Assembly (NCBI GenBank): GCA_009691715.1
Contig: SIAN01000016.1
Location: forward strand, 389-64,388
DNA from: Planctomycetota bacterium
GTDB lineage: Bacteria > Planctomycetota > B15-G4 > SIAN01
Direction: 5' to 3'
DNA length: 64,000 nt
Shown here: positions 1 through 44,953 of the stretch, piece after piece
Layout: the number at the start of each line of letters is the position of its first letter
How positions within the stretch are numbered: position 1 is the first letter of the stretch
Translations under genes and position numbers: made by a program
Notes under the pieces: model-generated
Seen by the model: the letters and a program-made list of their open reading frames with translations, nothing else
The model's database searches: none
Told to the model about the DNA's origin: nothing

Positions 1-987
1 TGCTTCCCCTACGGCGGCTTCCACGCCGAGCGCGTGAAGCTCGCGGTCTATCGACCAAGCTGGCTCGACGAGGAGCGGGTGACTTTTACGCTTCAGGCGG
101 CCCGCGTGGCAGCGAGTCTCGCACCGGCCGGCTCGGTCGTGCCGATCTCCACGCTCGCCGGCTCGTGCAAGGAGTTCGGTGGTAGTGATGCGATCGATGC
201 CGCGATCGCCCGCAACCTCGCGCGAGTCGCCGCCGAGCTCGCGACACTGCGCGCCGAAACCGGGCGCGAAATCGTGCTCTGCCTTGAACCAGAACCGTTC
301 ACGACGCTTGAAACCAGCGCTGAAGCGGTTGCATTCTTCCGGGAGCATGTCCACTCCCGCGCCACTCGCGCGGCATTCGTCGCTGCCGGTGGATCGAGCA
401 TCGACGCCGATGATGCGCTCACCCGCCACGTGGGCGTCTGCTTCGACGCGTGCCATCAGGCGGTCGAGTTCGAGGAGTCGGCCGCGGCCCTTGATCGATT
501 GATCGCTGGCGGCGTGCGAATCGGCAAGCTGCAGCTGTCGAATGCGCTGGCGATCCGGCCGGAGATCGATCGCGCGGCCACGCTTGCCGAGCTTTCGTCG
601 TTCGTTGAGCCACGTTGGCTCCATCAAGCGCTCCTTCGCGCGCCGGATGGGAGGATCGATCGGCACCTCGACTTGGCCGCGGGGATGACTGCGCTGTCGA
701 GCGCCTCGCCAGGCACCGAGATGCGGGTCCACTACCATGTGCCGATCGATCGATCGGCGTTGGGCGTCCTCGCCACCACCCGTCGCGAACTTGGCGAAGC
801 CGTCACTGCAGCGTTGGCGACACGGGCGACGGACTGCCTCGAAGTCGAGACTTACACGTTCCCTTCGCTGCCAAAAGTCGCAGAGCAGCGCCCGCTGGTC
901 GAAGCGCTGATCGGGGAGCTTCGATTCGCACGCCGGCTGATTGACGAAAGTGAGCCGATGTCGACCCATCGCGATTTAGAATCATGA
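1..987 (+). CDS. eboE: EboE-like TIM-barrel sugar-phosphate isomerase/epimerase family protein (5' end outside window)
   Basis: Frame 1 is open from nt 1 (CFPYGGFHAERVKLAVYRPSW...), upstream of the GTG at 34 used by the ORF track. FPYGGFH..VK..VY.P.W and ..ISTL.G.. resemble EboE family motifs from memory. TGA stop at 985-987. Confidence 0.6.
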   Translation, partial: CFPYGGFHAERVKLAVYRPSWLDEERVTFTLQAARVAASLAPAGSVVPISTLAGSCKEFGGSDAIDAAIARNLARVAAELATLRAETGREIVLCLEPEPFTTLETSAEAVAFFREHVHSRATRAAFVAAGGSSIDADDALTRHVGVCFDACHQAVEFEESAAALDRLIAGGVRIGKLQLSNALAIRPEIDRAATLAELSSFVEPRWLHQALLRAPDGRIDRHLDLAAGMTALSSASPGTEMRVHYHVPIDRSALGVLATTRRELGEAVTAALATRATDCLEVETYTFPSLPKVAEQRPLVEALIGELRFARRLIDESEPMSTHRDLES

Positions 988-1201
988 ACATCGACGTTGC
1001 GATGCCGCGGGATGTAGTCGAGGCGGCGGATCGCGAGTCGTCCAACAGCGCGCTGTCACGAGTTTCCAGACGCCGGGTCACGAACCAACCGTCGACTGCT
1101 ATGAACGGATGCCAGATTCGGTCGATCCTCCGGTCGGCGCTGCGGCAAACGCGGTCGGTCGCGTTCTTTCGCTCGGGCAAATCACTCCAGGAGCCAATGT
1201 C

Positions 1202-1279
1202 ATGCGGAGATTGTTCATGAGCGCCGCGATCTCGGCAATCGCTGCGTTCGCGCTCGCACCCGACCTCAGCGGTGGCTGA
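1202..1279 (+). other. 25-codon signal-peptide-like ORF (MRRLFMSAAISAIAAFALAPDLSGG) ending at TGA 1277-1279, in frame with the 1325..2011 ORF; possible true N-terminus via UGA recoding
   Basis: ATG 1202 lies 8 nt after CAGGAG (1188-1193). Same frame (frame 2) as 1325..2011 with no other stop in between. Paralogous copy at 2421..2498. Confidence 0.5.
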
Positions 1280-1286
1280 TGCGGTG

Positions 1287-1309
1287 GCGGGGGCGCCGGA
1301 GGCGCCCGC
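1287..1309 (+). promoter_or_regulatory. GC-rich bulged hairpin starting 8 nt after TGA 1277-1279 (candidate SECIS-like or recoding element)
   Basis: Hand-folded: 1291-1297 pairs with 1301-1307, GG bulge at 1289-1290, 1287-1288 pairs with 1308-1309, G-rich apical loop (GGA or CGGAG). Confidence 0.3.
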
Positions 1310-1324
1310 GGAGGTGGTGGTGGG

Positions 1325-2011
1325 ATGCGAAGCGGTGGTGGCCTGTCACGACAGGGCACTTCAAGCGTCGCGCGACTCCAGATGAAGTGGGAGACGCCAA
1401 AACTCGACCTTTACGACGGCGTCGATCAGGAGAACTTCTTCTCGGTGCTGCCAGATGATTTCGCGGCCGCTGGACAACCGCTGATCGTGATGCTCGGCAG
1501 CGACCAGCCGGAAGCCGCGCAGAAGATCACCGATCTCGAGACGAAGATCTTCGGCGACGAGAACGTGGCGGTCGGTGCCCGGCTGTTCCGCGCAGTTCGC
1601 CTGAAGGGCGACAAAATTACGAAGAGCCACGCGTTCTGGAACACCATCGGCGGGAAAGAGCTTCCGCGCGTGGTGATCATCGATGCGACCGGCCGCAAGG
1701 CGGGCGATCTCGAAGGTGGCGACCTGTCGGCTTCGAGCCTCTTCAAGGTGATGAAGAAGGCAGCGTCGAAGACGTACAAGACCGACCTCGACAAGGTGGT
1801 CAAGTCGACGCGGGAACTGCTCGACGAGATGGACCAGATCGAGGCGAAGCAGAAGCTGCTTTTGGAGCAGAAGAAGACGGCGAAGGGCGGCAAGATCCTG
1901 CAGATCGCCGCAGAGGAGGAGTCGCTCGCGAAGGCGTTGAAGAACGTCCAGACGCGCGACGCCGAGTTGCTGAAGAAGTACGGCGACGATCGCAAGGTGA
2001 CGAAGGGTTGA
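1325..2011 (+). CDS. Conserved hypothetical protein, paralog A: alpha/beta domain (possibly thioredoxin-like, no CxxC) plus Lys/Glu-rich C-terminal coiled coil
   Basis: ORF track 228 aa. Alignable over its whole length with 2523..3167 (KWETPKLDLYDG vs KWDDPKFNTYDG; both end ..DRKVTK[GA]). High GC3. Homology starts near 1382; the true start may be 1202 via UGA recoding. Confidence 0.85.
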   Translation: MRSGGGLSRQGTSSVARLQMKWETPKLDLYDGVDQENFFSVLPDDFAAAGQPLIVMLGSDQPEAAQKITDLETKIFGDENVAVGARLFRAVRLKGDKITKSHAFWNTIGGKELPRVVIIDATGRKAGDLEGGDLSASSLFKVMKKAASKTYKTDLDKVVKSTRELLDEMDQIEAKQKLLLEQKKTAKGGKILQIAAEEESLAKALKNVQTRDAELLKKYGDDRKVTKG

Positions 2012-2061
2012 GCCGGATTGCCTGAGTCGGACTGAACTTCGGAATACGAATCGTGTTTTGC

Positions 2062-2098
2062 GCGGGGCGTCGCATGACTTGCGACGCCCCGCTTTTTT
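2062..2098 (+). terminator. Rho-independent terminator after paralog A
   Basis: gcggggcgtcgca / tgcgacgccccgc stem (about 13 bp) followed by TTTTTT. Confidence 0.8.
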
Positions 2099-2288
2099 CT
2101 CGTTCGACCACCGCTCGGCGCCGTTCGCCGCGGGGATGGATCGGATTGTCATCCGAAATATCAATACAAGACGTCGAGAATGCGAGTTCCGGCGCACTGC
2201 GTTACGAGGGCCGGATCCGCATCCGATCCGCGCCGCCGCGAGACCTGTTCAAAAGATTTCAGTCACAGGACTTGCAACGTTTCAGCGT

Positions 2289-2303
2289 TGGCGGCGTAAT
2301 TGC
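2289..2303 (+). promoter_or_regulatory. Possible sigma54 (-24/-12) promoter upstream of paralog B
   Basis: TGGCGGCGTAATTGC: GG and GC at the canonical spacing of TGGCACG-N4-TTGC. About 118 nt upstream of ATG 2421. The -24 half deviates from consensus (GG instead of AC). Confidence 0.3.
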
Positions 2304-2420
2304 CGACCGTGCGAGGGGTGCGAGCGGGGACCGGCGTTCCGGTCCGTCGTCCGTGTACGCCGGGGATCGTCCTCAGGACTGCAACTCGGGACTTCTACAG
2401 AATTTCAGGAGTCGACTTCG

Positions 2421-2498
2421 ATGCGGAGCTTCGTGTTGGCCGGTGCGATGGCGGTCATTGCCGCCCTCGCGATCACGCCTGACCTCAAAGGTGGCTGA
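2421..2498 (+). other. 25-codon signal-peptide-like ORF (MRSFVLAGAMAVIAALAITPDLKGG) ending at TGA 2496-2498, in frame with the 2523..3167 ORF; possible true N-terminus via UGA recoding
   Basis: ATG 2421 lies 9 nt after CAGGAG (2406-2411). Frame 3, same as 2523..3167. Read through, the junction is DLKGG-[TGA]-GGGRCGAS-MARIEYKW. Confidence 0.5.
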
Positions 2499-2510
2499 GG
2501 CGGCGGACGC

Positions 2511-2532
2511 TGCGGCGCCAGTATGGCGCGCA
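2511..2532 (+). promoter_or_regulatory. Bulged hairpin 12 nt after TGA 2496-2498 (candidate bacterial SECIS-like element)
   Basis: Hand-folded: 2511-2513 pairs with 2530-2532, bulged G2514, 2515-2519 pairs with 2525-2529, 5-nt loop AGUAU containing GU. Layout resembles the minimal E. coli fdhF SECIS as I remember it. Confidence 0.4.
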
Positions 2533-3167
2533 TCGAGTACAAGTGGGACGATCCGAAGTTCAACACCTACGACGGGCTCAATCTCGAGAGCCTCTACTCG
2601 GCACTTCCCGAGCAGTACAAAGTGGCCGGCAAGCCGACGCTCGTCTTCATGACCAGCGATCTTGCTGACGACGCGCAGTACATGAAGAACGTTGACGCGA
2701 CGACGCTGATGGACGAGAACATCCAGATTGGCGCCGGCATGTTTCAGCAGATGAAGATCAACGGGAACAAGATCAAAGAGAACAACCCGTTCTGGAAGAT
2801 CCTCGGCGGCAAGCAGTTGCCGCGGATGGTTGTCGTCGATGCAGCTGGCGCAAAGGTCGGTTCGGTCGAAGGCCAGGACATTTCGCCGTCGAAGGTGTTC
2901 GCGCTCATGAAGCGCGGCGCGAGCAAGATCTACAAGACTGACCTCGAGACGATCGTCAAGGAATCCAAGACGATCCTGACTGAGATCGACCAGATCGAGG
3001 CGAAGCGCTCCGCGCTTGAGACCAAGAAGTCGAAGTCGACCGCGAACAAGGGCGCGGAGTGGGCCAAGGAAGAGAAGGTCCTGAACGAGCAGATGAAGGC
3101 TGTCGAGGCGCGCGATCTCGCGTTGAAGAAGAAGTGGAACGAGGATCGGAAGGTCACGAAGGCCTGA
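2523..3167 (+). CDS. Conserved hypothetical protein, paralog B: alpha/beta domain (possibly thioredoxin-like, no CxxC) plus coiled coil
   Basis: ORF track 214 aa. Paralog of 1325..2011. High GC3. TGA stop. Confidence 0.85.
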   Translation: MARIEYKWDDPKFNTYDGLNLESLYSALPEQYKVAGKPTLVFMTSDLADDAQYMKNVDATTLMDENIQIGAGMFQQMKINGNKIKENNPFWKILGGKQLPRMVVVDAAGAKVGSVEGQDISPSKVFALMKRGASKIYKTDLETIVKESKTILTEIDQIEAKRSALETKKSKSTANKGAEWAKEEKVLNEQMKAVEARDLALKKKWNEDRKVTKA

Positions 3168-3225
3168 TCGATCGAGTCGAGTGCCGAGACGCCCCGCAGC
3201 TCTCAGCGCAACCAGCAAGCTGATC

Positions 3226-3271
3226 GAAAACGACACAGCCCGGGCGGAAACGCCCGGGCTGTGTCGTTTTC
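3226..3271. terminator. Perfect 21-bp hairpin with GAAA tetraloop (A-run / T-run arms, potentially a bidirectional terminator)
   Basis: gaaaacgacacagcccgggcg-gaaa-cgcccgggctgtgtcgttttc, read directly. Lies 59 nt after the paralog B stop. Confidence 0.85.
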
Positions 3272-3435
3272 TTACAGCGCCGTCATGCGCGGTCGGGTTG
3301 CCGCCGCCGGGCGCCGCTTCGGTTTCACCAGTTCATCGCTGGTGGGCTCTTGGTCGATCAATAGAGCGAATGACTGCGGTGCGCGTCCTTGGTAGCGCGA
3401 GCTAACGTCACTGCCGTCGCGTCGCGTCTGAGGCA

Positions 3436-4578
3436 GTGTTCGTCTTGAGATCGCGAATGGCCACTACGCCTTCAATCAAGCGCACGGTCGCCTTCGCGCC
3501 CTCGCCGGGAACCGTGGAGGCAGCGGCGCTCGATGCTCCGAGCTCGGCGACAGCGGCAAAGCTTTCGCGCGAGCCGGCCGATCGACGATTCGTCCGCGCC
3601 GTGATGATCGACTTGGCGGGGCGCTCACCGCTTGAGGTCGAATGGACTGCGGCGAACGGCAAGCCGCGCGGTGAGTGGGTCCACATGGTGGCGCGGAGCA
3701 TCGCTGCCGCCGAGAGCTTCTATGAAGAAGAGCTCTTCTACTTCCTGCTGATCGACAACTTCCGGCCGTCAACGGACGCCTTCATCGAAATCCCGCAGAT
3801 GTTGGTCGAGCACAAGATCTCGACGCGCGAGATGCTCCGGCAAATTGTGTCGAGCCAGTTCTTCAACTCCCGCAACCCTGGCAACGACACCTTCGTCACG
3901 GTCGTGCTCGAACAGTTGCTTGGCTTCACGGTGCAAAAGGAGCCGGCGGTACTCGATGCTGGCAAGCGGATGTACGACGGGTACACGGCCAACTTCCTGG
4001 GCAAGTCGGGATCAAGTCAGGCTGATCTAGTGAGGATCGCGGTCGAGCACTTGAGCCTTGAGTCGTGCTTCCTCTCCCGACGATTCACTTCGATCTTCGT
4101 CGATGATCCGCCGAAGAAAAGGCTCGCTGCGGACGCCGCGCGGCTGCGAGCCGATCCGCTTGCATGGTCGGAGATCGTTGCCGGCTGGATCAACTCGCAG
4201 GCTTACGACGAACGCCTCGCCAAACCGCGTCCGAAGAGTGATCGCGTCTTCGTGCGATCGCTCTACGCCGACCTGTTCGGCCGAGTGCCGGACTACCAAG
4301 AGTTCCGGCGCTGTCGAAACGCGCTGCTGGCGCTGTCGGACTCGCGGCCGCTCCGCTCCGTCCTGATCAAGTTGATGCTCGACTCCGATGCGGCGGATGC
4401 CCTTGCCGCCGCGGCGGTCGATCGCAATGGCTACGTGCGTGAACGATTCCTGCAGTTCCTGGGACGCGAACCGACGCAAGGCGAGAGCTCGGCCTTCGTG
4501 CGCGAGCTCGGCGATGGCGCGAATCCGAAGCTGCTGCTACGCGCGCTCCTTACCCATTCCGAGTACCAGAGCTACTGA
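3436..4578 (+). CDS. Hypothetical protein with repeated helical L(F/Y)xxLxGRxP motifs (DUF1800/DUF4214-like), partner of the downstream DUF1501-like gene
   Basis: ORF track 380 aa. Motifs VRSLYADLFGRVPDYQEF and RERFLQFLGREPTQGE. Start uncertain (GTG 3436 or ATG 3457). Confidence 0.7.
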   Translation: MFVLRSRMATTPSIKRTVAFAPSPGTVEAAALDAPSSATAAKLSREPADRRFVRAVMIDLAGRSPLEVEWTAANGKPRGEWVHMVARSIAAAESFYEEELFYFLLIDNFRPSTDAFIEIPQMLVEHKISTREMLRQIVSSQFFNSRNPGNDTFVTVVLEQLLGFTVQKEPAVLDAGKRMYDGYTANFLGKSGSSQADLVRIAVEHLSLESCFLSRRFTSIFVDDPPKKRLAADAARLRADPLAWSEIVAGWINSQAYDERLAKPRPKSDRVFVRSLYADLFGRVPDYQEFRRCRNALLALSDSRPLRSVLIKLMLDSDAADALAAAAVDRNGYVRERFLQFLGREPTQGESSAFVRELGDGANPKLLLRALLTHSEYQSY

Positions 4579-4602
4579 GTCGAACTGACGAGGAGGCTTC
4601 CG

Positions 4603-5766
4603 ATGGGACAGCGCAACTTCGATCCAGTCACGCGACGCGGCTTCCTCAAGGCAGGCGCGGCGATCGCGGGTGCCGCGGCGCTCCAAGGGCCGCTGCTTGG
4701 CGCTCTCGGACCGACGTCCTCCTCCAAGACCAAGCGCGTGCTTCTGGTGCTCTTTGCCGGCGGAGTCCGCAGCAAGGACACGATCGGCACGCCTGCGAAT
4801 GTCCCGAATCTGATGCGGCTCGCGGAGAAGGGCATCGTGTTGCCGAATTGCAGGTCGGCCAACCTCGGTCATTACGGCGCGTCGCTCTCGATCCTGACCG
4901 GGGTCCCGGAGTACATGGGGATCCGCGAGAACTCACGCGGCTACAACCCAACGATTTTCGAGTACGTCCGCAAGGAGCTGACGCTGCCTGCGAGCGGCGC
5001 GTGGCTGTCGGCGAACAATGGGTCGCAGGGAGTCAACTTCGCCTACGGTCTGAACCGGCAGTGGGGCGCCCCTTACGGCGCCAACGTCATCGACGGCGAC
5101 GGGATCTTCAACCAGGAGTTCCGAGAGGTCATCGGCCAGTTCGGGACGCCGCGCGCCGATTCGGCGAGTGACGCCGATGCGATGGCTCGGTTGCGTGGTG
5201 CGATCGAGCAGAAAGGCGACGGCAAGGCGGTGAACGACGAGGCGACCGCCGCGCGCGTCGAGAAGTACATCGTCGACGAACTGACCAAGAGTGAGACGGC
5301 AAGCCTTACCGGGCCGGGCGCGGGCGACGCCAAGGCGCTGCGCATCGCGGGGAACATCCTGCAGATCTTCAAGCCGACGCTCACGTGCGTCTCGCTCACC
5401 AACGCCGATGTCGCGCATGGCTCGTACAACGCTTACGTCGACGTCATCAAGCGCAACGACCAGGAACTTGGACGCATTCTCGACGCCGTGCAGCAGGACG
5501 CGGGGCTGCGCGACTCGACCTCGGTTTTCGTGGTACCTGAATTCGGTCGTGACAAGAACCTGAATCAGCGCAATGGTCTCGACCACGGCGACGGCTCCGA
5601 GGAGCTGAACAGGGTGGCCTGCGTCGCATGGGGCCCCGATTTCAAATCAGGGAAGACGATCACCACCGACTGCGACACCATTGACCTCTGCCCGACGATC
5701 TGTCGCATGCTCGGAGTCGAGGCGCCGCTGGCGCGTGGCAAGATCCTGCCGCGATTGCTCGGCTGA
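4603..5766 (+). CDS. DUF1501-like (sulfatase/alkaline-phosphatase superfamily) protein with twin-arginine signal
   Basis: GAGGAGG lies 7 nt before the ATG. N-terminus ..VTRRGFLKAGAAIAGAAALQG is a Tat motif. C-terminal ..NGLDHGDG.. is typical of DUF1501 (from memory). Confidence 0.75.
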   Translation: MGQRNFDPVTRRGFLKAGAAIAGAAALQGPLLGALGPTSSSKTKRVLLVLFAGGVRSKDTIGTPANVPNLMRLAEKGIVLPNCRSANLGHYGASLSILTGVPEYMGIRENSRGYNPTIFEYVRKELTLPASGAWLSANNGSQGVNFAYGLNRQWGAPYGANVIDGDGIFNQEFREVIGQFGTPRADSASDADAMARLRGAIEQKGDGKAVNDEATAARVEKYIVDELTKSETASLTGPGAGDAKALRIAGNILQIFKPTLTCVSLTNADVAHGSYNAYVDVIKRNDQELGRILDAVQQDAGLRDSTSVFVVPEFGRDKNLNQRNGLDHGDGSEELNRVACVAWGPDFKSGKTITTDCDTIDLCPTICRMLGVEAPLARGKILPRLLG

Positions 5767-5777
5767 GCGGCGCCACA

Positions 5778-8750
5778 ATGCGCCGGTTCTTGTTGCTGCT
5801 GCGTGCGCTCGCCGGTGTGCTCACTGTCGTCGCCGCGCTCGGAGGCGCGCTGTCACGGGCGTCGCTGGCGTCGCCGGCGATGCCGATTCAGGCAGGGCCG
5901 GAGGGCTGTCTGCAATGCCATGTAGGTATCGAGTCGATGCACCCTTGGCACGAGCTCTCCTGCACGGCGTGCCACGGCGGCGATGCGAAGGCGGTTCGCA
6001 AGGAGCAGGCGCACGTCCGCCCGCATGTCGCCCCGCCCCACGATGAGCGTCTGTTGCCGCGCGACTTCGACCCGGCTTGGGTGCAGTTCAAGAACCCGAG
6101 CGACCTGCGCATCGTCACGGGCACGTGCGGCGCGTGTCACACCGCGAGCTGCGAGGACCTGTTCAAGTCGCTCCACTGCACGACCGCCGGCCACCTGTCG
6201 GACGGCCTCTACGAGAACGGATTGACGAAGGAGCGGCGCACCCGCTACTCGATCTTCGCGGTGAAGGACGGCGATGGTCGCATTGGCCGGAACGGATTCG
6301 CGGAGTTTCCCGCCTTCCCCGCCAGCGACGACCGCGCGCGAAGTGGAGAGCTCGCCGGCCACGTCGCCGACCTCGGCCGCAAGAGCTGCATGCAGTGCCA
6401 TCTCTGGAGCAACGGCACCGCCGTTCGCGGGCGCCTCGGTCAGGACGGCAACTACCGCGGCAGCGGCTGTTCCGTCTGCCACGTCACCTACGCCGAGGAC
6501 GGCCTGTCGCGCAGTGACGACCCGACCGTCGATCGCTTCGAGCCTGGCCATCCGGAGCGCCACGCGATGGTCAAGGCGCCGCCGACTCAGACCTGCGTGC
6601 GCTGCCACTTCGGCGATGCCTCGATCGGGCTCAACTTTCGCGGGCTGGCGCAACTGGTCCCCGGGATGCCGGCGGGGCCCGAAGTGGCGGGCACGACGCA
6701 CGCATTGCAGAACGGCGTGTTCTATTCCAACGACCCGAAGGTGACGCCTCCCGACGTGCACCACGAGCGCGGCATGCACTGCGTCGACTGCCATACGGTG
6801 CGCGACGTGATGGGCGACGGCGAGCTCTACGGGTTCATGGAGCACGCGGTCGAGATCGAGTGCACCGACTGCCACGGCAGCTTCGATGAAGTGAGTCGCA
6901 TGACGACTTCCCGGGGTCGCAAGCTCGATCATCTGCACGCGAAGGACGGGTTGATCTGGCTCGAGTCGAAGGTGGACGGGAAGAGGCACTACATTCCGCA
7001 GGCCACCCATGTGATTGATCCCGCGCGCCCGGAGTTCAACGCGAAGGCCGCGCGCGCGATGACGCCGAAACACGCGCGGCTCGAGTGCTACACCTGCCAC
7101 GCCGGATGGAACGCCAACTTCCTTGGCTTCCACTTCGATCGCAATGAGTCGTTCTCGCAGCTCGACATCATCTCCGGCGAGCGCACCTCCGGCCGCTGCT
7201 CGACTCAGGAGAAGGTCTTCGCGACTTACCGGCAGTTCTACGTCGGGTGGAATGACGAGGGGATGGTGGCGCCCTATCTGGTCGGCTTCTCGACCATGGG
7301 GAGCGTGCACGGCCGTGACGGCGCGCTCTCCATCGATCAGGCGTTGCCGGTCACCGCGTCTGGAAAATCGGGCATGACCATGGTGCACCACCAGCTCCAT
7401 TCGACGCGTGGACAGGCGCGCGGCTGTGTCGAGTGCCACCGGTCGCCAGCGACGCTTGGCCTCGGTTCGCCGAGCTTTGGGCTCGCGCGCGAAGTCGCAG
7501 CGATCCTCGATGTCCGCGGCGTCCACCTCGTCGCCGTGGATCGCGAGGCGCTCGACGGATCGACGCCGCTCGCGTCCGTGCCGCTGTCCGGTGGAGTTGC
7601 CGTGGCGGCGCGCTGTGACGATCTGCAGGGACGATTCGAGACGCTCTACGTTGCGCTGCAGGGCGCGGGCATCGCCGTGATCGACGCACGTAAGCCGGCC
7701 TTTCCGGAAGTGATCGCCTTCATCGACTGCGACGACCCGCGCGATGTGCTTGTCCGCGGGGAGATGCTGTTCGTTGCCGACGGCAGGGGGGGCGTGAAGC
7801 TGTTCGATGTCGCCGATCCGCGCCGGCCGCGGCTGCTGGTTCGCCTGCCGACCAAGGAGGCGCGCTCGCTCGATCTCGCGTGGCCACACCTCTATGTCGC
7901 CGACGGCGCGGCCGGCATTAAAATCTTCGACGTCGCGACTCCCGGGAAGGTCGACCTTGCCGGCCACCTCGACCTGAACGGCGATCCCGGCTACGACGAC
8001 GACGCGCACGCGGTCAAGGTGATGTTCCAGTACTCACGGCCTGACGACGGTTTTGGTGAACGCAGCACGGCGCGCAAGTTGGCCGTCATCGCGGGCGGAT
8101 TGCAGGGCTACTTCTTGTTCGACGTGACCGAGGTCGGCGAGCCAGAACGGTTGTTCCCTCCGGGCGGAACGCCAATCCCGAGGACGACGACGGCTTCCCC
8201 GCCGGAGAGCACCAATCGAGTGCTCGACGTGCAGGTCTTGTCGCGGTTCGACCTCGGCAGCCCGGGCGGCGATATCCCGACTGAAGAACACGACTACGCG
8301 TTGTTCGCGGTGCAACCGCTCGAGGAGACGATGACCCCGGGGGCGCTCGCGATCGTGCGCATCACCGATCCCGAGGCGCCGAAGAGCGTCGCCGCCACGC
8401 CGATGCCTGACGGCGCTTTTCGCCTCGCAACGGCCGCGTGGTACCAACCGCCATTCCTCCGCCGCTACGCGCTCGTCGCCGGACGCAACGCGACGGCCGT
8501 CGTCGAAACCTCCGCGAGCGACAAGCCCGCCTTGGTCGGGACGCTGTTCGGCGAGGCGTTGCGCGTGCGCGACGTCGTGGTGGAGGAGTTTCCGCTCGAT
8601 CGGATGGTCGACGAGGCCGGCAAGACGCTGAAGGACATCTCCCACGAAGGGTCGCGGTATTTCGATCTCGCTGAGATCACGCGTCTTCTGCACGTCCCGC
8701 TCGCGGCGGAGGATCGTCTCGGGTTTCGCTTCGAGGAGGGCGGACGATGA
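5778..8750 (+). CDS. Secreted decaheme c-type cytochrome fused to C-terminal LVIVD-repeat (beta-propeller) domain
   Basis: Signal peptide. Ten CxxCH motifs (CLQCH, CTACH, CGACH, CMQCH, CSVCH, CVRCH, CVDCH, CTDCH, CYTCH, CVECH). Then repeats such as GGVKLFDVADPRRPRLL, AGIKIFDVATPGKVDL and GIAVIDARKPAFPEVI. Confidence 0.9.
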   Translation: MRRFLLLLRALAGVLTVVAALGGALSRASLASPAMPIQAGPEGCLQCHVGIESMHPWHELSCTACHGGDAKAVRKEQAHVRPHVAPPHDERLLPRDFDPAWVQFKNPSDLRIVTGTCGACHTASCEDLFKSLHCTTAGHLSDGLYENGLTKERRTRYSIFAVKDGDGRIGRNGFAEFPAFPASDDRARSGELAGHVADLGRKSCMQCHLWSNGTAVRGRLGQDGNYRGSGCSVCHVTYAEDGLSRSDDPTVDRFEPGHPERHAMVKAPPTQTCVRCHFGDASIGLNFRGLAQLVPGMPAGPEVAGTTHALQNGVFYSNDPKVTPPDVHHERGMHCVDCHTVRDVMGDGELYGFMEHAVEIECTDCHGSFDEVSRMTTSRGRKLDHLHAKDGLIWLESKVDGKRHYIPQATHVIDPARPEFNAKAARAMTPKHARLECYTCHAGWNANFLGFHFDRNESFSQLDIISGERTSGRCSTQEKVFATYRQFYVGWNDEGMVAPYLVGFSTMGSVHGRDGALSIDQALPVTASGKSGMTMVHHQLHSTRGQARGCVECHRSPATLGLGSPSFGLAREVAAILDVRGVHLVAVDREALDGSTPLASVPLSGGVAVAARCDDLQGRFETLYVALQGAGIAVIDARKPAFPEVIAFIDCDDPRDVLVRGEMLFVADGRGGVKLFDVADPRRPRLLVRLPTKEARSLDLAWPHLYVADGAAGIKIFDVATPGKVDLAGHLDLNGDPGYDDDAHAVKVMFQYSRPDDGFGERSTARKLAVIAGGLQGYFLFDVTEVGEPERLFPPGGTPIPRTTTASPPESTNRVLDVQVLSRFDLGSPGGDIPTEEHDYALFAVQPLEETMTPGALAIVRITDPEAPKSVAATPMPDGAFRLATAAWYQPPFLRRYALVAGRNATAVVETSASDKPALVGTLFGEALRVRDVVVEEFPLDRMVDEAGKTLKDISHEGSRYFDLAEITRLLHVPLAAEDRLGFRFEEGGR

Positions 8751-9994
8751 GCCGGTGGGCGCAGGCTGTGTCGTCTCTGGCGGTTGTGGCGCTCTTCGTC
8801 CCGTTGGCTTCGGCGCAGGCCGGCAGTGGTGCCGCGAAGCAGTTCCTTGCCAGCCTCGACCTTGACGGCAACGGCTACGTCGGCCGCGATGAGTGGAGCG
8901 GCAGCGGCGCGACGTTTGTCCTTCTCGACGTCGACCTCGACGGTTGGCTCACCGGTCCGGAGCTCACGAAGTCGACCAAGGCGGGCGCGCGCGCCGTCGA
9001 AGCTCCCGATCCGAGTCGCCTCGCGGTGGCGATCGGCGACCTGCCCGATCTCGTCGAGCCCTTCCGTCGCAGCTGCCTCGCCTGCCACGATCAGCAGCGG
9101 GTGGAGCGGGCGGCGAAGGACGCGAAGGGTTGGTCCGAGACCGTGCGCAAGATGCGTGAGAAGAAGGAGGCGTCGATCACGGAGAAGGACGCGCGCGCGA
9201 TCGTCGAGTGGCTTTCGGACCAACGCGCGCGGGTTGCGCTGTCGCTGGCAAGCTTCGGCACCGGCGATCCGGTCGGCGCGTGGGGCATGGTGATCGGCGG
9301 GGGCGACCTCCACTTGTTCGACCGCGACCGCAACGGAAAGCTCGAGGGTGGCGAGTTGGCGCGGCTGATCCACCAGCGCGCTGATCTCGACCGGGACCAA
9401 CTCCTGTCGCCGGGCGAGCTAGCGCTGCTGCCGCTCGCGGTCGACCGCCGCGCGCTGTTCCAGAAGCTCGATCGCGACAAGAACGGCGGAGTCAGCCTGA
9501 AGGAGCTCGGGATTCCAGCGCCGCTCCTCCAATTGTTCGACCGAAACGCCGACCAGCAGCTCGAGCGCGGCGAGCTGCCGAGTTCGCGCCGCTACGGCGG
9601 GCCGATCTCGATGATCCTGATCGGTGACGCGAAGACGGCGCTCGATCTCCTCGACCGGGATCACGACAAGAGCCTCTCCGCCGCCGAGCTCGCTCGCTTT
9701 CCGCGGACGCTCATGCGCTTCGACGGCGACAACAACGCCAGCCTCGATCCGAAGGAGCTTGAGACCGCGGTCACAGCTGGTCGTGCCGAAGGCCCTCTCG
9801 CGGCCTTCGACGACTTCTTCACCCGCTACGACCTCGACGGTGATGGCAGCGTCGCACGCCGCGAGTTTCCGGGTCGAGACGCCGCGTTCGCCCGCCTCGA
9901 TCTCGACGGCGACGGCGTGCTGACGTCGCGCGACGCGCAAGGCGGCATGACCCGAGTCGACTTCACGCCCGAGGCGTTGCGCTGGCGCGATTGA
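8747..9994 (+). CDS. Secreted multi-EF-hand calcium-binding protein with one c-type heme motif
   Basis: ATGA overlap with the upstream stop. Signal peptide (..LASAQAG). Ten DxDx(D/N)G..-type 12-residue loops (DLDGNGYVGRDE, DRDRNGKLEGGE, DLDGDGSVARRE...). One CLACH motif. Confidence 0.85.
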   Translation: MSRWAQAVSSLAVVALFVPLASAQAGSGAAKQFLASLDLDGNGYVGRDEWSGSGATFVLLDVDLDGWLTGPELTKSTKAGARAVEAPDPSRLAVAIGDLPDLVEPFRRSCLACHDQQRVERAAKDAKGWSETVRKMREKKEASITEKDARAIVEWLSDQRARVALSLASFGTGDPVGAWGMVIGGGDLHLFDRDRNGKLEGGELARLIHQRADLDRDQLLSPGELALLPLAVDRRALFQKLDRDKNGGVSLKELGIPAPLLQLFDRNADQQLERGELPSSRRYGGPISMILIGDAKTALDLLDRDHDKSLSAAELARFPRTLMRFDGDNNASLDPKELETAVTAGRAEGPLAAFDDFFTRYDLDGDGSVARREFPGRDAAFARLDLDGDGVLTSRDAQGGMTRVDFTPEALRWRD

Positions 9995-12675: not shown

Positions 12676-13035
12676 ATGACCATGTCTCCCCCGATCCTAG
12701 TCCTGGTCCAAGACCTCTTCTTCCGCGCGAAGATCGAGGCAACAGCGCGCGCTGGCGGTTGGCCGGTGTGGTGCGTGCACGATGTCGCGTCGTTGCCGGA
12801 CGCCGTCGCATGCCGGGCCTGTCTGATCGATCTCGAGTCGGCCGGTGCTGATGCGCTCGCGCGGTTGCCCGGGATCGCCGCGCGGGTGCCGACGATCGCG
12901 TTCGCGTCGCATGGCCGGATCGACCTGCTCGAAGCCGCGCGAGCAGCCGGTTGCCGCGAGGCGCTGCCGCGCTCGCGGCTCGCCGCCGAGCTTGCGCGCG
13001 TACTCGGTTCGCTCGCTGCAGGCGGCGATCCGTGA
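12676..13035 (+). CDS. Degenerate CheY-like receiver-fold protein
   Basis: ILVLVQD...CLIDLES...TIAFASHG... layout of a receiver domain with non-canonical acidic pocket and Lys. 119 aa. Confidence 0.55.
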   Translation: MTMSPPILVLVQDLFFRAKIEATARAGGWPVWCVHDVASLPDAVACRACLIDLESAGADALARLPGIAARVPTIAFASHGRIDLLEAARAAGCREALPRSRLAAELARVLGSLAAGGDP

Positions 13036-14174
13036 CCGCGACCCGATGGTCGACGGCGGTGGCGTTGGCCGCCGCTGGTGTCGTCGGGGGGTGCGCGAAG
13101 GGCTCGTCCGGCAGCTCGAGCGAGGGCGCGCCGTCGGTGGAGCATTCGCTCGCGGTTCCGGACGAGACTGCGCCATCGGCTGTCGCGCCGCCGCCTAGCG
13201 GTCCCGCTTCTTCGCCGCGCGGGCGCTTCGTCAACAGCGACGCCGAACCTTTTGCCTTCGCGGTCGAACCGGACTCGATCGAACTTGGCGTGCTGCGTCC
13301 CGATGAGGATTCGGACTGCGCGTTCGAGATCGTCAACCGCGACTCGCGCCCGCTGCGGCTCGTCAACATCGACGGATCCTGCGACTGCGTCGCGTTCGAA
13401 TACACCCGCGGTGACCTGCCACCGGGGACGCGCCGCAAGGTGGTGGTAAAGGTCAAGGCGGAGAATCGCGGCAACAAGGTGCTGACCGTGTTCGTGCAAG
13501 CGAACGATCGGGTCGTGACCACCCACGAATTGGCGATCCGATACTCGATCGAGCCCGCCCTCGTGTTCGAACCGCCGCGTGCCGACTTTGGCCAGCGGGT
13601 GATCGGTTCTCCCGGCCGTCTTGAGGTGCGCGTCCGCTATCGATTGCCGATCGGGTGCGAGCCACTGACGCTCGCGCCGAAGTGGGTGACTGAAGTCCCG
13701 GCGACGTTCGAGCTTGGCGGCGCACGAGCGGAGCCCTCGGGTGGCGGCCTGGTCGATTTCGATCAACCGCTCGTGCTCGTGCTCGAGGCGAGCCACGCGT
13801 TCAAGTCCTTCAAGTCGGAACTGCTCTTCGAGGGTGTCGGCCATCGCCGCTCGGCGCTTCCCGTGACCGGCTCCGTCCACGCCGAGACATGGCTCGATCC
13901 GGCGGAGCTTCACCTCGGAGTGACTGAGGTGGGAAAGCTTCGCCAGGGGGCCGTCCGGCTACGCTGGACCGTGGAGCCGGTGAATGCCGATGAGATCACC
14001 TGTTCCGTCCCGGAACTGAGGGCGCAGGCGTCGCCGGAACGCGGTGCGCGCGCCCTTCGGATCCAGGTCGAATTCGAGCCGAAGGTCTCTGGCGAGTTCG
14101 CCGGAGACGTCACGATCCGCACCAAGCAGGCAGAGGAACCTCTGGTCCTCCGCGTGCGCGCCAAGGTCCGCTGA
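13032..14174 (+). CDS. DUF1573-like (Ig-fold) lipoprotein, paralog 1
   Basis: GTG 13032 overlaps the upstream TGA (GTGA). Lipobox VVGGC. FEIVNRDSRPLRLVNIDGSCDCV resembles the DUF1573 signature (..N.G..PL.I..V..SCGC). Track start 12951 rejected. Confidence 0.75.
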   Translation: MTATRWSTAVALAAAGVVGGCAKGSSGSSSEGAPSVEHSLAVPDETAPSAVAPPPSGPASSPRGRFVNSDAEPFAFAVEPDSIELGVLRPDEDSDCAFEIVNRDSRPLRLVNIDGSCDCVAFEYTRGDLPPGTRRKVVVKVKAENRGNKVLTVFVQANDRVVTTHELAIRYSIEPALVFEPPRADFGQRVIGSPGRLEVRVRYRLPIGCEPLTLAPKWVTEVPATFELGGARAEPSGGGLVDFDQPLVLVLEASHAFKSFKSELLFEGVGHRRSALPVTGSVHAETWLDPAELHLGVTEVGKLRQGAVRLRWTVEPVNADEITCSVPELRAQASPERGARALRIQVEFEPKVSGEFAGDVTIRTKQAEEPLVLRVRAKVR

Positions 14175-14182
14175 GGAAAGAC

Positions 14183-15346
14183 ATGCGAATGCCCGGTTTG
14201 ATGCTCTCGGTGGCCGTGTTGGTCGCGGTGTCGCTCATTTCCGCAGGTTGCGACGAGCCCTCGCCGCGGTCGGCGACGCCGGCTTCAGTGGCGACGCCCG
14301 CATCTGCTGCGCCGACGGCCGTGGGCGATCCGGCAGCCGCGCGCGCTTCGCTGCCAGCTGCCCTGGTACCCGCCGGCGCCGAGCAAGGCGCCGGCGCGCC
14401 GGCGAAGCCCTGCTTCGAAGTGTCCCCGCCGGGTTTCGAGCTGAACGTCGTCGAGCAGAACTCGGTGCACGACCTCGAATTCTCCGTCATCAACTGCGGC
14501 GACCGGCCGTTCAACGTCGCCTACGTCACGACCGAGTGCAAATGCATGACGCTCGATGTCGACCGCGCGATGTTGAAGCGCGGCAACTCGGTGAAGGTCA
14601 AGCTGCGCGTCACGGCGACCGCCTCGAATGAGCGCAAGACGGCGGCGATCCTCCACCTCTCCGACCCGGCGAAGTCGAAGGTCCGAGTCGAAGTGCACTA
14701 CGCCGTCGTGCCTGAAATCCTGGTCGAGCCTCGCGGTGTCGGCTTCGGTCGGGTCGAGAGCGGCAAGACAGCCGAAGTCTCCTTGCGGGTGACGATGCAC
14801 CTGCCGGGGTCGATCAAGGAAATCCCGAAACTCGAGCCATTCATCGCCCATGACCTGCCGATCAAACTGAGATTCGACGAGCCGAGCATCACGACGTCGG
14901 CAGGCGGGATGCGCGACTGGGTGGCGACGCTCCATGTCGAGCTGGACGGGAAGGAGCCGATCGAGCAGTTCCTGACCCAGTTGGTGTTCAGGCCGACGGA
15001 GAATCTCACGTTCCGCGAACTCGCGGTGCGGGTGACCGGCGAAGTGGTGCCGGCTTGGTATTTCGAGCGCGGCGTCGTCGCGTTCGGCTCGGTCAGCGCC
15101 GGCGAGGCGGTCGAGAAGGAGATGCGTTTCTACTACCCCGGCCCCGAAGTACCCGCGGTGCTGTCCCTCGAGACTGACGTCGCCGGACTCGAGGTCACGA
15201 GCGCGCCGGACGCTGAGCAGCGCTGCCACGTGCTCAAGCTCAAGCTCGTCGCCAAGGAGTCGGGGAAGATCGAGGGGGTCGTGAAGCTGACCACCTCGCT
15301 CAGTTCGGAACCAGCGGTGCTGCGGATCACTGCACGCGCGAAGTGA
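14183..15346 (+). CDS. DUF1573-like (Ig-fold) lipoprotein, paralog 2
   Basis: Lipobox LISAGC. FSVINCGDRPFNVAYVTTECKCM. Alignable with 13032..14174. Confidence 0.8.
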   Translation: MRMPGLMLSVAVLVAVSLISAGCDEPSPRSATPASVATPASAAPTAVGDPAAARASLPAALVPAGAEQGAGAPAKPCFEVSPPGFELNVVEQNSVHDLEFSVINCGDRPFNVAYVTTECKCMTLDVDRAMLKRGNSVKVKLRVTATASNERKTAAILHLSDPAKSKVRVEVHYAVVPEILVEPRGVGFGRVESGKTAEVSLRVTMHLPGSIKEIPKLEPFIAHDLPIKLRFDEPSITTSAGGMRDWVATLHVELDGKEPIEQFLTQLVFRPTENLTFRELAVRVTGEVVPAWYFERGVVAFGSVSAGEAVEKEMRFYYPGPEVPAVLSLETDVAGLEVTSAPDAEQRCHVLKLKLVAKESGKIEGVVKLTTSLSSEPAVLRITARAK

Positions 15347-42001: not shown

Positions 42002-44953
42002 GTGGCGAGCGAGCGGACGAAAGAACTGTCGTCGTTAATTTGGTTCGGCGCGGGAGCATTCCTGCTGGCCGCCATGGCGTCCTATTCCGAAGACGTGCTT
42101 CCCCTCCTGGGGACAGAGCGCTGGCATAACGTCTGTGGTCCGGCGGGATTCGTGCTCGCGCGCGCGCTGCTCTCGCAACTGGGTTACGCGGCCTACCTGA
42201 TCCCGCTGGCCCTGATCGGTGAGGGGGCGCGGCTGTTCGCCCGACTGCCGTCGCGACCGCTGAAGGTCCGCGTGTTCGGAATCCTGCTGTTCATGCCGGT
42301 GTTGGCCGCGGCGCTGCACGATCTGCTCGGCGGCTACAGCACGCGCATCCCCGATCCGGGCGGCGAATTCGGCATCTGGCTCGCCGGACTGCTCAAGCAC
42401 GATGGCGGTCTCGGATCGGTCGGTGGTCGGATCGCGTTGACGATGTTGCTGCTGATCACCTTCGTCCTCTACGCCGACCTGCTCTATTCGCGCTCGGCAG
42501 CGTCGGTACTGAACTGGCTCGGAGAGCGTGGAGGAGTGCTCGCGTTCGTCCGCGGCGGAGCGCCAGTCGGAGGCGCGACCATGCTCGCGGGAGCTTCGGC
42601 AGCGGGAGCCGCGCTCGCGCCGGCCAGAAGTTGGTGGCGGCGAGGCGACGTGGCGCTCGACGCGAAGAATGACGTCGCGCCGAACGATGCCGACGATCCG
42701 TTCGAAGGCGTGGATTCGATCGAGAGCACAGCGGAGCTCCAGAGCACAGCGGATATCGAGAGCAACGAAGAACTCGACGCGGAGCTCGATCGCGCGCTCG
42801 CGCAGCCGTCGAGAGGTGCGAGGAAGCAGAAGAAGAAGAACTCGAAGCGATTGTTGTCCGCTGTCGACGCGGCGATGGAGAGCGACGCCGTCGAAGTCGA
42901 GTACCCGGTCGCCGAGCCGATCGACGAGGAGTTGCTCGAACGGCGCCCGCCAACGCCGGCCGAACGCGAGGTCGCAGCGCGCGCTTCCGCACTGGTCGAG
43001 GCGAAGGCGAAGGCTGAGGCCGACGCGCAGGCGGCGACCGCGAAGGCGATCCGCGATGCGGTCGCGAAGAGTGGTGCGCCGGCGACGAAAGCTGCGACGG
43101 CGGCGCGAGTCGCCGTCGAAACGACCCACCACGGAACGTCCGACACCGAGCTCCTCGAGGAACTCGAAGCCGATCGCGACGTCGACGCGAAGTCCGAAGT
43201 TTCGACGTTCGCTGCGATCCGGCCGAGTGCGCCTGCTCGCAAGAGCCCGCCGCCGATGACGCACGCGATCCTGCAGACGCCGGAAGCCCCGGAGCAGGAG
43301 CCGAGCCGTCCCTACGTCTTTCCTTCGTTCCAACTGCTCGATCCGCCCGAACGCGACAGCGGCGGCGACTTCCTCAAGTTCACCGAAGAGGCGGCACGCA
43401 AACTCACCACGGCGCTCCGTTCGTTCAAGGTCGAGGCGCGCGTGGTCGGCGTGCAGCGCGGGCCCTCGATCACGATGCTCGAAGTCGAGCTCGCGCCCGG
43501 CACCAAGCTGACGCGACTGCGCGCGCTCGAGGACGATCTCGCGATGGCGCTCGCCGCCCAGAGCGTGCGCATCGTCGCGCCGATCCCCAACAAGTCGACC
43601 GCCGGGATCGAGATCCCCAACGACGCGCGCGCCGTCGTGCGCATGTCGGAGTTGCTGCAGTGGCCGGGCTTCAACCCGCAGAAGTACGCCATCCCGATTT
43701 GCCTCGGCAAGGACTCGAGCGGCGCGCCGCGCATCGAGGACCTCGCCAAGATGCCGCATCTGCTCGTCGCCGGCTCGACCGGCTCGGGAAAGTCGGTCTG
43801 CCTCAACACGTTGATCATGTCGATCCTGTTCACGCGCACGCCGGACCAGGTGAAGCTGATCCTGATCGACCCGAAGATGGTCGAGCTGTCGTCGTTCCAG
43901 AACGTGCCGCACCTCATGTGCCCGGTCGTGACCGACATGAAGCGCGCGGCCGGGATCCTCGAATGGGCGTGCGAGAAGATGGAGGAGCGCTACGCGCTGC
44001 TGCACAAGGTGGGCGTGCGCAACATCTACGCCTACAACAAGCTCGGCGAAGACGAGGTCAAGCTGCGCCTCGGCGACGAGCTCTCCCAAGATTTCGAGAC
44101 GACGCTGCCGTTCATCGTGATCGTCATGGACGAACTCGCCGACCTGATGCTGCAGCACGGCAAGGACGTCGAGCAGTTCATCACGCGCCTGGCGCAGAAG
44201 TCGCGGGCGGTCGGCATTCACGTGATCTTGGCGACGCAACGTCCGTCGACCAACGTGATCACCGGCTTGATCAAGGCCAACCTGCCGACGCGCATCGCAT
44301 TCCGCGTGACCAGCAAGATCGACTCGCGCGTCATCCTCGATCACAACGGCGCCGACAAGCTGCTCGGCCAGGGCGACATGCTCTATATCCCGCCCGGCAG
44401 CGCCGATCTTTCGCGCGTGCAGGGCTGTTTCGTGACCGACCAGGAGATTCGCGTCGTCGTCGACTACCTAGCGCAGCAGGGGCCGCCGAAGTACTCGCGC
44501 GAATTGGTGCAGAAGCGCAACTCGTCGGACAAGGATCCCGGCGAGATCGACGACCTGTTCGACGAGGCGGCGAAGTTCGTTGTGGAGACGCAGCGCGGCT
44601 CGGCGTCGCTGCTGCAGCGCCGCTTCGCGATCGGCTACACCCGCGCGTCGCGGCTGATCGACCTGATGGCGAACGACGGGCTGCTCGGCGAATTCAAGGG
44701 CAGCCAGGCGCGCGAGGTCGTGTGCACGAGTCTCGAAGAGCTCGAGCAACGACGTGCCGAACAGCGCAAGGCGCGCGGCGCCAAGCTGACGGCATCCGTG
44801 GATGCTCGAAGTGGCGACTCTTCCGGCAGCGAATCCGCGGTCGGCGTGGCGGACGCCGACCCCGGAATGTCTGAGGCCGACGGCGACGAAAAGAACGGCG
44901 ACAAAAAGAACGGCGACGAAAAGAACGGCGACGAGCAGGAGGGGAAGGCATGA
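42002..44953 (+). CDS. ftsK: DNA translocase FtsK (4TM + linker + motor + gamma domain)
   Basis: GTG start. N-terminal TMs. VAGSTGSGKSVCLN Walker A, VIVMDELADLM. Gamma domain LLQRRFAIGYTRASRLIDLMANDGLL. NGDEK repeats at the C-terminus. Confidence 0.93.
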   Translation: MASERTKELSSLIWFGAGAFLLAAMASYSEDVLPLLGTERWHNVCGPAGFVLARALLSQLGYAAYLIPLALIGEGARLFARLPSRPLKVRVFGILLFMPVLAAALHDLLGGYSTRIPDPGGEFGIWLAGLLKHDGGLGSVGGRIALTMLLLITFVLYADLLYSRSAASVLNWLGERGGVLAFVRGGAPVGGATMLAGASAAGAALAPARSWWRRGDVALDAKNDVAPNDADDPFEGVDSIESTAELQSTADIESNEELDAELDRALAQPSRGARKQKKKNSKRLLSAVDAAMESDAVEVEYPVAEPIDEELLERRPPTPAEREVAARASALVEAKAKAEADAQAATAKAIRDAVAKSGAPATKAATAARVAVETTHHGTSDTELLEELEADRDVDAKSEVSTFAAIRPSAPARKSPPPMTHAILQTPEAPEQEPSRPYVFPSFQLLDPPERDSGGDFLKFTEEAARKLTTALRSFKVEARVVGVQRGPSITMLEVELAPGTKLTRLRALEDDLAMALAAQSVRIVAPIPNKSTAGIEIPNDARAVVRMSELLQWPGFNPQKYAIPICLGKDSSGAPRIEDLAKMPHLLVAGSTGSGKSVCLNTLIMSILFTRTPDQVKLILIDPKMVELSSFQNVPHLMCPVVTDMKRAAGILEWACEKMEERYALLHKVGVRNIYAYNKLGEDEVKLRLGDELSQDFETTLPFIVIVMDELADLMLQHGKDVEQFITRLAQKSRAVGIHVILATQRPSTNVITGLIKANLPTRIAFRVTSKIDSRVILDHNGADKLLGQGDMLYIPPGSADLSRVQGCFVTDQEIRVVVDYLAQQGPPKYSRELVQKRNSSDKDPGEIDDLFDEAAKFVVETQRGSASLLQRRFAIGYTRASRLIDLMANDGLLGEFKGSQAREVVCTSLEELEQRRAEQRKARGAKLTASVDARSGDSSGSESAVGVADADPGMSEADGDEKNGDKKNGDEKNGDEQEGKA
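44882..44935 (+). repeat. 15-nt in-frame tandem repeat (ggcgacgaaaagaac, about 3.5 copies) at the ftsK 3' end
   Basis: Read directly. Confidence 0.9.

Follow-up and report, generated by a model that had tools for sequence, protein, structure and literature searches.

In-frame UGA codons that probably encode selenocysteine in a tandem pair of thioredoxin-fold proteins from Planctomycetota

The genes described here are located near the start of a 64,000-nucleotide stretch of DNA from a Planctomycetota bacterium (assembly GCA_009691715.1, contig SIAN01000016.1, positions 389 to 64,388; the whole of this 64-kb stretch is here denoted the window, and position 1 is its first letter). Two paralogous genes, denoted A and B, follow one another on the forward strand and are ~42% identical. 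In both, a short open reading frame (ORF) encoding a hydrophobic peptide ends at a UGA codon, and a longer ORF encoding a predicted thioredoxin-fold protein continues in the same frame. The short ORF of A starts at ATG 1202, with CAGGAG 8 nt upstream, and ends at TGA 1277-1279, which is directly followed by a Cys codon (TGC 1280-1282). Across this TGA it shares the frame of the ORF at 1325-2011, and GGAGG is located 10 nt upstream of ATG 1325. The layout of B is the same, with TGA 2496-2498 followed by codons for GGGRCGAS and then by an ORF running from ATG 2523 to 3167. The string GACCTCA..GGTGGCTGA.GCGG.GG spans the stop in both copies. An earlier reading of the window from its letters alone (here the sequence-only reading) had described these elements of A and the string common to the two copies, and each of them was confirmed when we read the window. 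A strong intrinsic terminator follows A (2062-2092 and a T run); A and B are therefore separate transcription units. Coordinates of the features are collected in Table 1.

To compare the region between relatives we took orthologous loci from genome and metagenome DNA, which gave 18 distinct A and 22 distinct B upstream regions. Every fetched orthologous locus carries the same tandem A-B pair. All 40 distinct sequences have the TGA at this one site, in the frame of the domain, and none has TAA, TAG or a sense codon instead. The pattern M-[RK]-x-hydrophobic stretch-PDLxGG-TGA recurs in every copy with upstream sequence, and the order signal peptide-TGA-TGC is seen again in L031 and L033, two distant members of the family. 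Counted from the TGA, an invariant Trp of the downstream protein follows at 28-40 codons in A, with ten different values, and at 15-16 codons in B; all the indels among the ortholog linkers are multiples of three. Minimum substitutions in the linker are distributed over the three codon positions as 45/35/75 in A and 9/4/16 in B, a coding signature, and the residues SRQGTSSVARLQ preceding MKWE form a block conserved among the orthologs, so that coding conservation is present on either side of the UGA. The sequence-only reading had put the frame match of the two copies at about one in nine by chance, a figure now superseded by the stronger one of 40 out of 40; judged from the alignments, the in-frame TGA pattern is far beyond chance.

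UGA is also the ordinary stop codon of this genome region. It ends 44 of the 48 window ORFs that have a coding signal (TAG ends three and TAA one), and a global reassignment of UGA was rejected on these counts. The code is therefore standard, and recoding must be local. The dominance of TGA as a stop makes site-specific recoding more dependent on local signals.

Exactly one Cys is found within 0-4 residues past the UGA in all A and B orthologs; it relocates between sequences and is never absent. With U denoting the UGA-encoded residue, the motif is U-C in most A sequences, U-GGGG-C in some A sequences, and U-GGGR-C or U-GGR-C in B. In the B copy of locus L003 the Cys now adjoins the UGA (U-CGGRSAAS) and the old site has changed from Cys to Ser. 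This relocation is a compensation at the protein level, and the stretch therefore belongs to the protein together with the UGA-encoded residue. A profile search of 1.84 billion representative proteins detected 338 relatives. Eight distant ones (P0055, P0068, P0138, P0091, P0082, P0093, P0095 and P0099) are uninterrupted ORFs in which a signal peptide is followed by a Cys-rich motif, as in ..TDAG-CCC-GRSAAC.. and ..ALGGG-C-G-CC-GRSSAA... We aligned these proteins by MAFFT with the window UGA written as X, so that it had no attraction to Cys, and in each of the eight the UGA column fell on the Cys that comes first after the signal peptide. The usual requirement for a bacterial selenoprotein family is that a conserved TGA/Cys pair be supported by two or more Cys homologs (PMC1088965); eight are found here. 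In a further relative, L032 (P0128), the signal peptide runs straight into the Gly/Arg-rich linker (..AIPTDLMAQRGGGGRGGG..) and the protein has neither selenocysteine (Sec) nor Cys, an arm without its warhead.

Past the UGA, the transcript of A can form a hairpin like that of a selenocysteine insertion sequence (SECIS). In the window this is a perfect 7-bp stem (GGGCGCC-GGA-GGCGCCC, arms 1291-1297/1301-1307) placed exactly 11 nt past the UGA, and a perfect hairpin of 6-8 bp is present 10-15 nt past the UGA in 17 of 17 distinct A sequences. Its loop is GGN, GGUC or CGUG.., with a G at the first or second position. Position-restricted searches with codon-shuffle controls gave p = 0.006 for the hairpin of A in the window and 0.006-0.115 per sequence across the A orthologs. 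At least five versions of the stem occur (GGGCGGC/GCCGCCC, GGGCGCC/GGCGCCC, CGGAGGC/GCCUCCG, and the two inverted ones UGCCGCC/GGCGGCA and GCCGCCC/GGGCGGU), with compensatory changes at four of the seven stem pairs among orthologs, and the peptide encoded by the stem shifts with the version (GGGAAR, GAGGAR, GGGASG, AAGGG). In L033, a distant homolog, the stem is of the same version as in the window and again lies 11 nt past the UGA. The sequence-only reading had placed a bulged hairpin at 1287-1309 and rated it weaker than that of B; the hairpin is there, with its perfect core at 1291-1307, and the ranking is reversed, A being the better supported of the two.

The corresponding element of B is near-invariant in nucleotides (TGA GGC GGC GGA CGC TGC GGC GCC AGT ATG GCS CGC). 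One of its codons is AGT (2520-2522 in the window), a rare Ser codon that accounts for 6.4% of the window's Ser codons and is present in 22 of 22 distinct B sequences, directly before the ATG that gene callers take as the start. The invariant AGT indicates that in B the constraint probably acts on nucleotides and not on amino acids. The RNAalifold consensus of B is an interrupted stem of 4+4 bp with the loop GUA; the variable positions of the element lie in unpaired sites, and two changes preserve wobble pairs.

The likeness to the SECIS of E. coli fdhF, the classical element for Sec insertion in bacteria, lies in a hairpin 11 nt past the UGA, with a G at the start of the apical loop, situated inside the ORF where it constrains codon choice. 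In contrast to fdhF, A has a simple GC stem of 7 bp closed by a 3-nt loop (GGN), and the loop of B is GUA. The hairpins of A and B have no obvious bulged U, so the details of their recognition by SelB cannot be read from them.

Three comparative tests have been used for bacterial selenoprotein families, namely a conserved in-frame TGA, Cys homologs and a stem-loop just downstream whose small loop contains G (PMC1088965). All three give a positive result at this locus, the stem-loop test through the hairpin of A, since the element of B is weak by energy and would not decide the matter by itself; they support the sequence-only reading, which had proposed a Sec-type UGA read through with the help of a SECIS-like hairpin and an adjoining Cys. 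Together, the comparisons make it probable that the UGA codons at 1277-1279 and 2496-2498 are selenocysteine codons joining a signal peptide to a thioredoxin-fold protein.

Several observations weigh against selenocysteine. We found no selA, selB or selD gene in the window by Pfam search (including 47 further ORFs), no sel genes in the fetched loci, and no tRNA-Sec by ARAGORN in the window or in 13 loci; in favour of Sec, the full machinery is present in some other Planctomycetes (PMC4807772). An Rfam scan of the window at gathering thresholds gave no match. In B the hairpin has a short, interrupted stem, and its energy does not surpass that of codon shuffles for half of the orthologs. Folding of the whole segment of 64 nt past the UGA is no better than that of dinucleotide shuffles, with z-scores near 0; these whole-segment scores are uninformative because any G+C-rich run of Gly codons folds, and the hairpin tests used the position-restricted searches instead. 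In the covariation table the hairpins were chosen for pairing, so that 'percent paired' is partly a matter of construction and the table mainly documents compensation. Finally, the close orthologs include no Cys form, whereas a selenoprotein family would usually have one.

The UGA might instead be read through without Sec, by a near-cognate tRNA (Trp or Cys) or a suppressor tRNA that inserts an ordinary residue at low efficiency, with no role for the hairpin except to slow termination. Such read-through would account equally well for all the evidence of translation across the UGA, and the lack of visible Sec machinery in the window and the loci is in keeping with it. Nevertheless we consider it improbable. 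It offers no reason to retain UGA, where a sense codon would serve better, yet TGA is kept in 40 of 40 sequences. The residue aligned with the UGA in uninterrupted homologs is Cys, and the conserved partner Cys close by is a signature of Sec/Cys exchange. Nor is there a common leaky context, as the base after the UGA varies (U in the U-C forms, G in B).

Annotation treats the locus as two separate genes. The 30 database homologs of the downstream protein are all annotated as 174-228 aa and none includes the N-terminal peptide, in line with an arrangement in which a 25-aa hydrophobic peptide or upstream ORF (uORF) ends at the UGA and a cytoplasmic thioredoxin-like protein is initiated at ATG 1325 or ATG 2523, possibly by termination-reinitiation. 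The GGAGG before ATG 1325 fits this arrangement, as does the ATG found 9 codons past the UGA in 21 of 22 B sequences, and a short hydrophobic ORF directly upstream of a longer one is what leader-peptide or uORF coupling looks like. Unlike such coupled pairs, A and B show conservation of frame, held through at least 10 linker lengths, and lack conserved downstream starts. The ATG is absent from many A orthologs, and CTG stands in its place in the B copy of L008. Six distinct orthologous sequences, five of A (L009, L016 and L010/L022/L023) and one of B (L008), contain no start codon (ATG, GTG or TTG) in frame anywhere from the TGA to the invariant Trp. A protein initiated on its own would thus lose conserved residues of the fold, and the conserved N-terminal part of the domain in these orthologs would be makeable only by read-through. 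In addition, the stretch from the UGA to the ATG shows the third-position-biased substitution and the conserved, relocating Cys described above, and in the Cys homologs a single ORF spans signal peptide, Cys and domain. Reinitiation at ATG 1325 after a leader peptide, the alternative entertained in the sequence-only reading, is contradicted by these data, and we regard two separate genes as very unlikely. A recent nonsense mutation or a sequencing artefact, which would have in its favour only that a stop lies within an otherwise continuous frame, is refuted: both paralogs have the same TGA, it recurs on over 25 independent contigs drawn from various assemblies and samples, and the sequence on either side is under purifying selection.

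Other ORFs of the window were considered and rejected. An overlapping ORF in frame +2 (1279-1458, + strand), whose ATG lies within TGATGC and which has 59 codons (MRWRGRRRRPRRWWW..), encodes Arg/Trp-rich nonsense, and TGATG is absent from the B-type sequences; it looks like a by-product of the Gly-codon run. Four other adjacent ORF pairs in the same frame (15327/16005, 52621/53065, 11257/12175 and 44875/46951), examined as candidates for additional selenoproteins, show no continuity across the stop.

In an AlphaFold2 model (pLDDT 87), the domain encoded downstream of the UGA consists of a thioredoxin fold and a long helical hairpin. The best Foldseek match in the PDB is DsbD-gamma, the C-terminal domain of DsbD and a redox shuttle of the periplasm (PDB 2fwf/1vrs; E = 3.7e-5; TM 0.66 over the target), followed by thioredoxins, AGR2/3, ResA and DsbH, and nearly all the top 50 matches are thioredoxin-fold proteins. 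Sequence identity to DsbD-gamma is only ~15%, and whereas DsbD-gamma has a CxxC and is fused to a membrane domain, A and B are without CxxC and have an extra C-terminal helical hairpin. At the canonical CxxC site they read S/T-D/E-x-P/A (G-S-D-Q-P in A and T-S-D-L-A in B), and no close ortholog of A or B has a Cys there, so the CxxC, CxxS or UxxC expected of an oxidoreductase is missing. The distant homologs P0163 and P0172 retain CHSC/CSQC at the canonical site, and the family therefore descends from thiol-disulfide oxidoreductases. In two other relatives, P0098 and P0107, a CxxxCxxxC is inserted at the thioredoxin active-site position, and in L033 (P0098) this insertion occurs together with the N-terminal UGA-Cys.

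The N-terminal peptide looks like a signal peptide of the Sec export pathway. By the -3/-1 rule, cleavage is plausible at L-x-G↓G (or at A-x-A). The Cys homologs have clear AxA sites 1-6 residues upstream of their first Cys (VQA↓DC, VDA↓HC, TDA↓GC); Sec or Cys would therefore be at about position 2 of the mature exported protein. A PROSITE-type lipobox reads [LVI][ASTVI][GAS]-Cys, with no charged residues just upstream. The sequence D-L-[KNRS]-G-G-U of A and B violates this rule, with charged residues at -5 and -3 and Sec in place of Cys, and in the Cys homologs position -1 is D or H and the cleavage sites are of the AxA type; a lipoprotein with Sec as its lipidated +1 residue was rejected for these reasons.

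Searches of the read-through proteins, with U replaced by C, gave no Pfam or NCBIfam match near the curated cut-offs, only spurious sub-threshold ones. The 119 prokaryotic selenoprotein families and subfamilies compiled in 2026 (PMC13188914), which we compared by the motifs and architecture of the table entries, contain no counterpart in motif or architecture, and no Pfam or NCBIfam model of any listed thioredoxin-fold selenoprotein family matches A or B. A and B would thus represent a previously unlisted family of bacterial selenoproteins in Planctomycetota, using a mechanism, bacterial Sec recoding, that is itself known. Most bacterial selenoproteins have a thioredoxin fold (PMC13188914). 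Like the bacterial thioredoxin-fold selenoproteins (the Sec-containing thiol:disulfide interchange, DsbA-like and TlpA-like proteins with UxxC/UGC; Table 1 of PMC13188914), A and B have an in-frame UGA and a hairpin inside the coding region, Cys homologs, a thioredoxin fold, a partner Cys nearby and probable export to the periplasm. The difference lies in the place of Sec, which in those proteins is at the canonical CxxC site at the start of helix 1, where A and B have S/T-D-x-P/A and no Cys; in A and B it would precede the fold by about 40 and 20 residues, respectively. An analogy, and an analogy only, is offered by the Gly-Cys-Sec-Gly arm of mammalian thioredoxin reductase, in which a vicinal Cys/Sec pair flanked by Gly forms an electron-shuttling selenylsulfide on a flexible arm outside the fold. 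That arm is C-terminal and reads G-C-U-G, whereas in A and B it is N-terminal and reads G-U-C-G, and the protein family, the kingdom and the type of SECIS differ.

If the two codons specify selenocysteine, expression of the pair may be pictured as follows. Translation would start at ATG 1202 in A and at ATG 2421 in B, and the GC-rich hairpin 11-16 nt past the UGA, acting as a bacterial SECIS, would recruit SelB carrying Sec-tRNASec. With selenocysteine inserted and termination avoided, the pre-proteins would be 269 aa long for A and 248 aa for B. Their N-terminal ~24 residues would serve as the signal peptide, and after the cleavage proposed at L-x-G↓G the mature exported protein would begin about one residue before Sec. 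It would carry a Sec...Cys pair (U-C or U-x3-4-C) on a flexible Gly-rich arm, tethered to a thioredoxin fold without CxxC and a helical hairpin. The Sec/Cys pair most likely forms a redox-active selenylsulfide, the protein acting as a periplasmic thiol/selenol oxidoreductase or shuttle. The spacing from U to C varies (0, 3 or 4 residues) within runs of Gly, and a redox-active selenylsulfide therefore fits better than a fixed metal site.

A more speculative and rather unlikely possibility is that the mature N-terminus X-Sec (G-U-C-GGGG or G-U-GGGR-C; D-C, H-C or G-C in the Cys homologs) is a selenolate or thiolate 'hook' on a flexible arm, which would either replace the lost CxxC of its own fold or bind metal through the N-terminal amine, Se and S, and which might serve the DUF1501/multiheme-cytochrome gene cluster described below. 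This would make a new architectural class with the catalytic Sec outside the fold. The metal-binding variant is reminiscent of the H-C-x-x-P-C nickel hook of NiSOD, and the predicted mature N-termini of P0095 and P0093 after AxA (H-C-D.. and D-C-D..) likewise resemble the NiSOD nickel hook in the form H-C-D-x-x-C. The B-type Sec forms of L019 and L026 would have U2...C6 spacing.

The pair is part of a syntenic gene cluster (34-9994 in the window) that is present in nine of the nine loci long enough to show it, among them L001, L002, L003, L005, L008, L009, L011 and L012. The order is an AP-endonuclease-2-like TIM barrel, A, B, a DUF1549/DUF4214-like protein, a TAT-signal DUF1501 protein and a multiheme cytochrome. 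The cluster neighbours are 72-87% identical between loci and more conserved than A and B, and a functional link between them and the proposed selenoproteins is possible. Farther downstream, two tandem DUF1573 genes (12951-14171 and 14183-15343, + strand) were examined as selenoproteins and rejected, as they have no in-frame UGA and their Cys residues are of the ordinary lipoprotein type (..VVGGC.. and ..ISAGC..); the DUF1573 family has known Sec-containing members with a UGC motif (PMC13188914). Elsewhere in the window, a full-length FtsK/SpoIIIE gene (42002-44953, + strand) is directly followed by an ORF of 666 aa (44950-46950, + strand) with only the C-terminal FtsK-gamma (winged-helix) domain.

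Table 1. Positions in the window of the features of the tandem pair and of the neighbouring genes of the cluster
Feature	Position	Strand	Remarks
Shine-Dalgarno-like CAGGAG of A	1188..1193	+	8 nt upstream of ATG 1202; read directly
Putative signal peptide of A, MRRLFMSAAISAIAAFALAPDLSGG	1202..1276	+	25-codon ORF from ATG 1202; basic n-region, ~14-residue hydrophobic core, c-region P-D-L-x-G-G
In-frame UGA of A, proposed selenocysteine codon	1277..1279	+	TGA in 18/18 distinct A orthologs; aligned with Cys of 8 homologs
Cys codon TGC of A adjoining the UGA (U-C motif)	1280..1282	+	
Gly-rich flexible linker of A, then conserved block SRQGTSSVARLQ	1283..1381	+	In-frame translation; codon-position bias
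SECIS-like hairpin of A	1291..1307	+	Stem GGGCGCC/GGCGCCC, loop GGA 1298-1300; 11 nt past the UGA
Predicted thioredoxin-fold domain of A, without CxxC, and C-terminal helical hairpin	1382..2011	+	Stop TGA 2009-2011
Intrinsic terminator 3' of A	2062..2098	+	13-bp stem and T run
Shine-Dalgarno-like CAGGAG upstream of ATG 2421 (B)	2406..2411	+	Read directly
Putative signal peptide of B, MRSFVLAGAMAVIAALAITPDLKGG	2421..2495	+	
In-frame UGA of B, proposed selenocysteine codon	2496..2498	+	TGA in 22/22 distinct B orthologs
Partner Cys codon of B (U-GGGR-C)	2511..2513	+	
Candidate SECIS of B	2511..2532	+	Lower stem 2511-2514/2529-2532, upper stem 2517-2520/2524-2527, loop GUA 2521-2523; RNAalifold consensus
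Predicted thioredoxin-fold domain of B and helical hairpin	2523..3167	+	Stop TGA 3165-3167
DUF1549/DUF4214-like protein	3436-4578		Cluster neighbour
TAT-signal DUF1501/sulfatase-like protein	4603-5766		Cluster neighbour
Multiheme cytochrome c, 990 aa, LVIVD repeats	5778-8750		Cluster neighbour
EF-hand/haem-binding protein	8747-9994		Next gene in the window

If selenocysteine is indeed encoded here, the prokaryotic selenoproteome would gain one more family, in the little-studied Planctomycetota known from environmental metagenomes, and every database entry that we examined would be mis-annotated as a truncated, seemingly cytoplasmic 'hypothetical protein' instead of an exported selenoprotein. 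The family would be unusual in placing Sec beside the signal-peptide cleavage site, on a Gly-rich arm and not in the thioredoxin active site, which is lost, and in the use of Sec by both tandem paralogs. That no Cys version occurs in the close clade suggests that Sec is not easily replaceable there. The orthologs would also offer a set of natural SECIS variants, in which the peptide shifts (G-G-A-A-R, G-A-G-G-A-R or G-G-A-S-G) to keep the RNA stem; the pair would therefore be a clear example of RNA structure shaping protein sequence.

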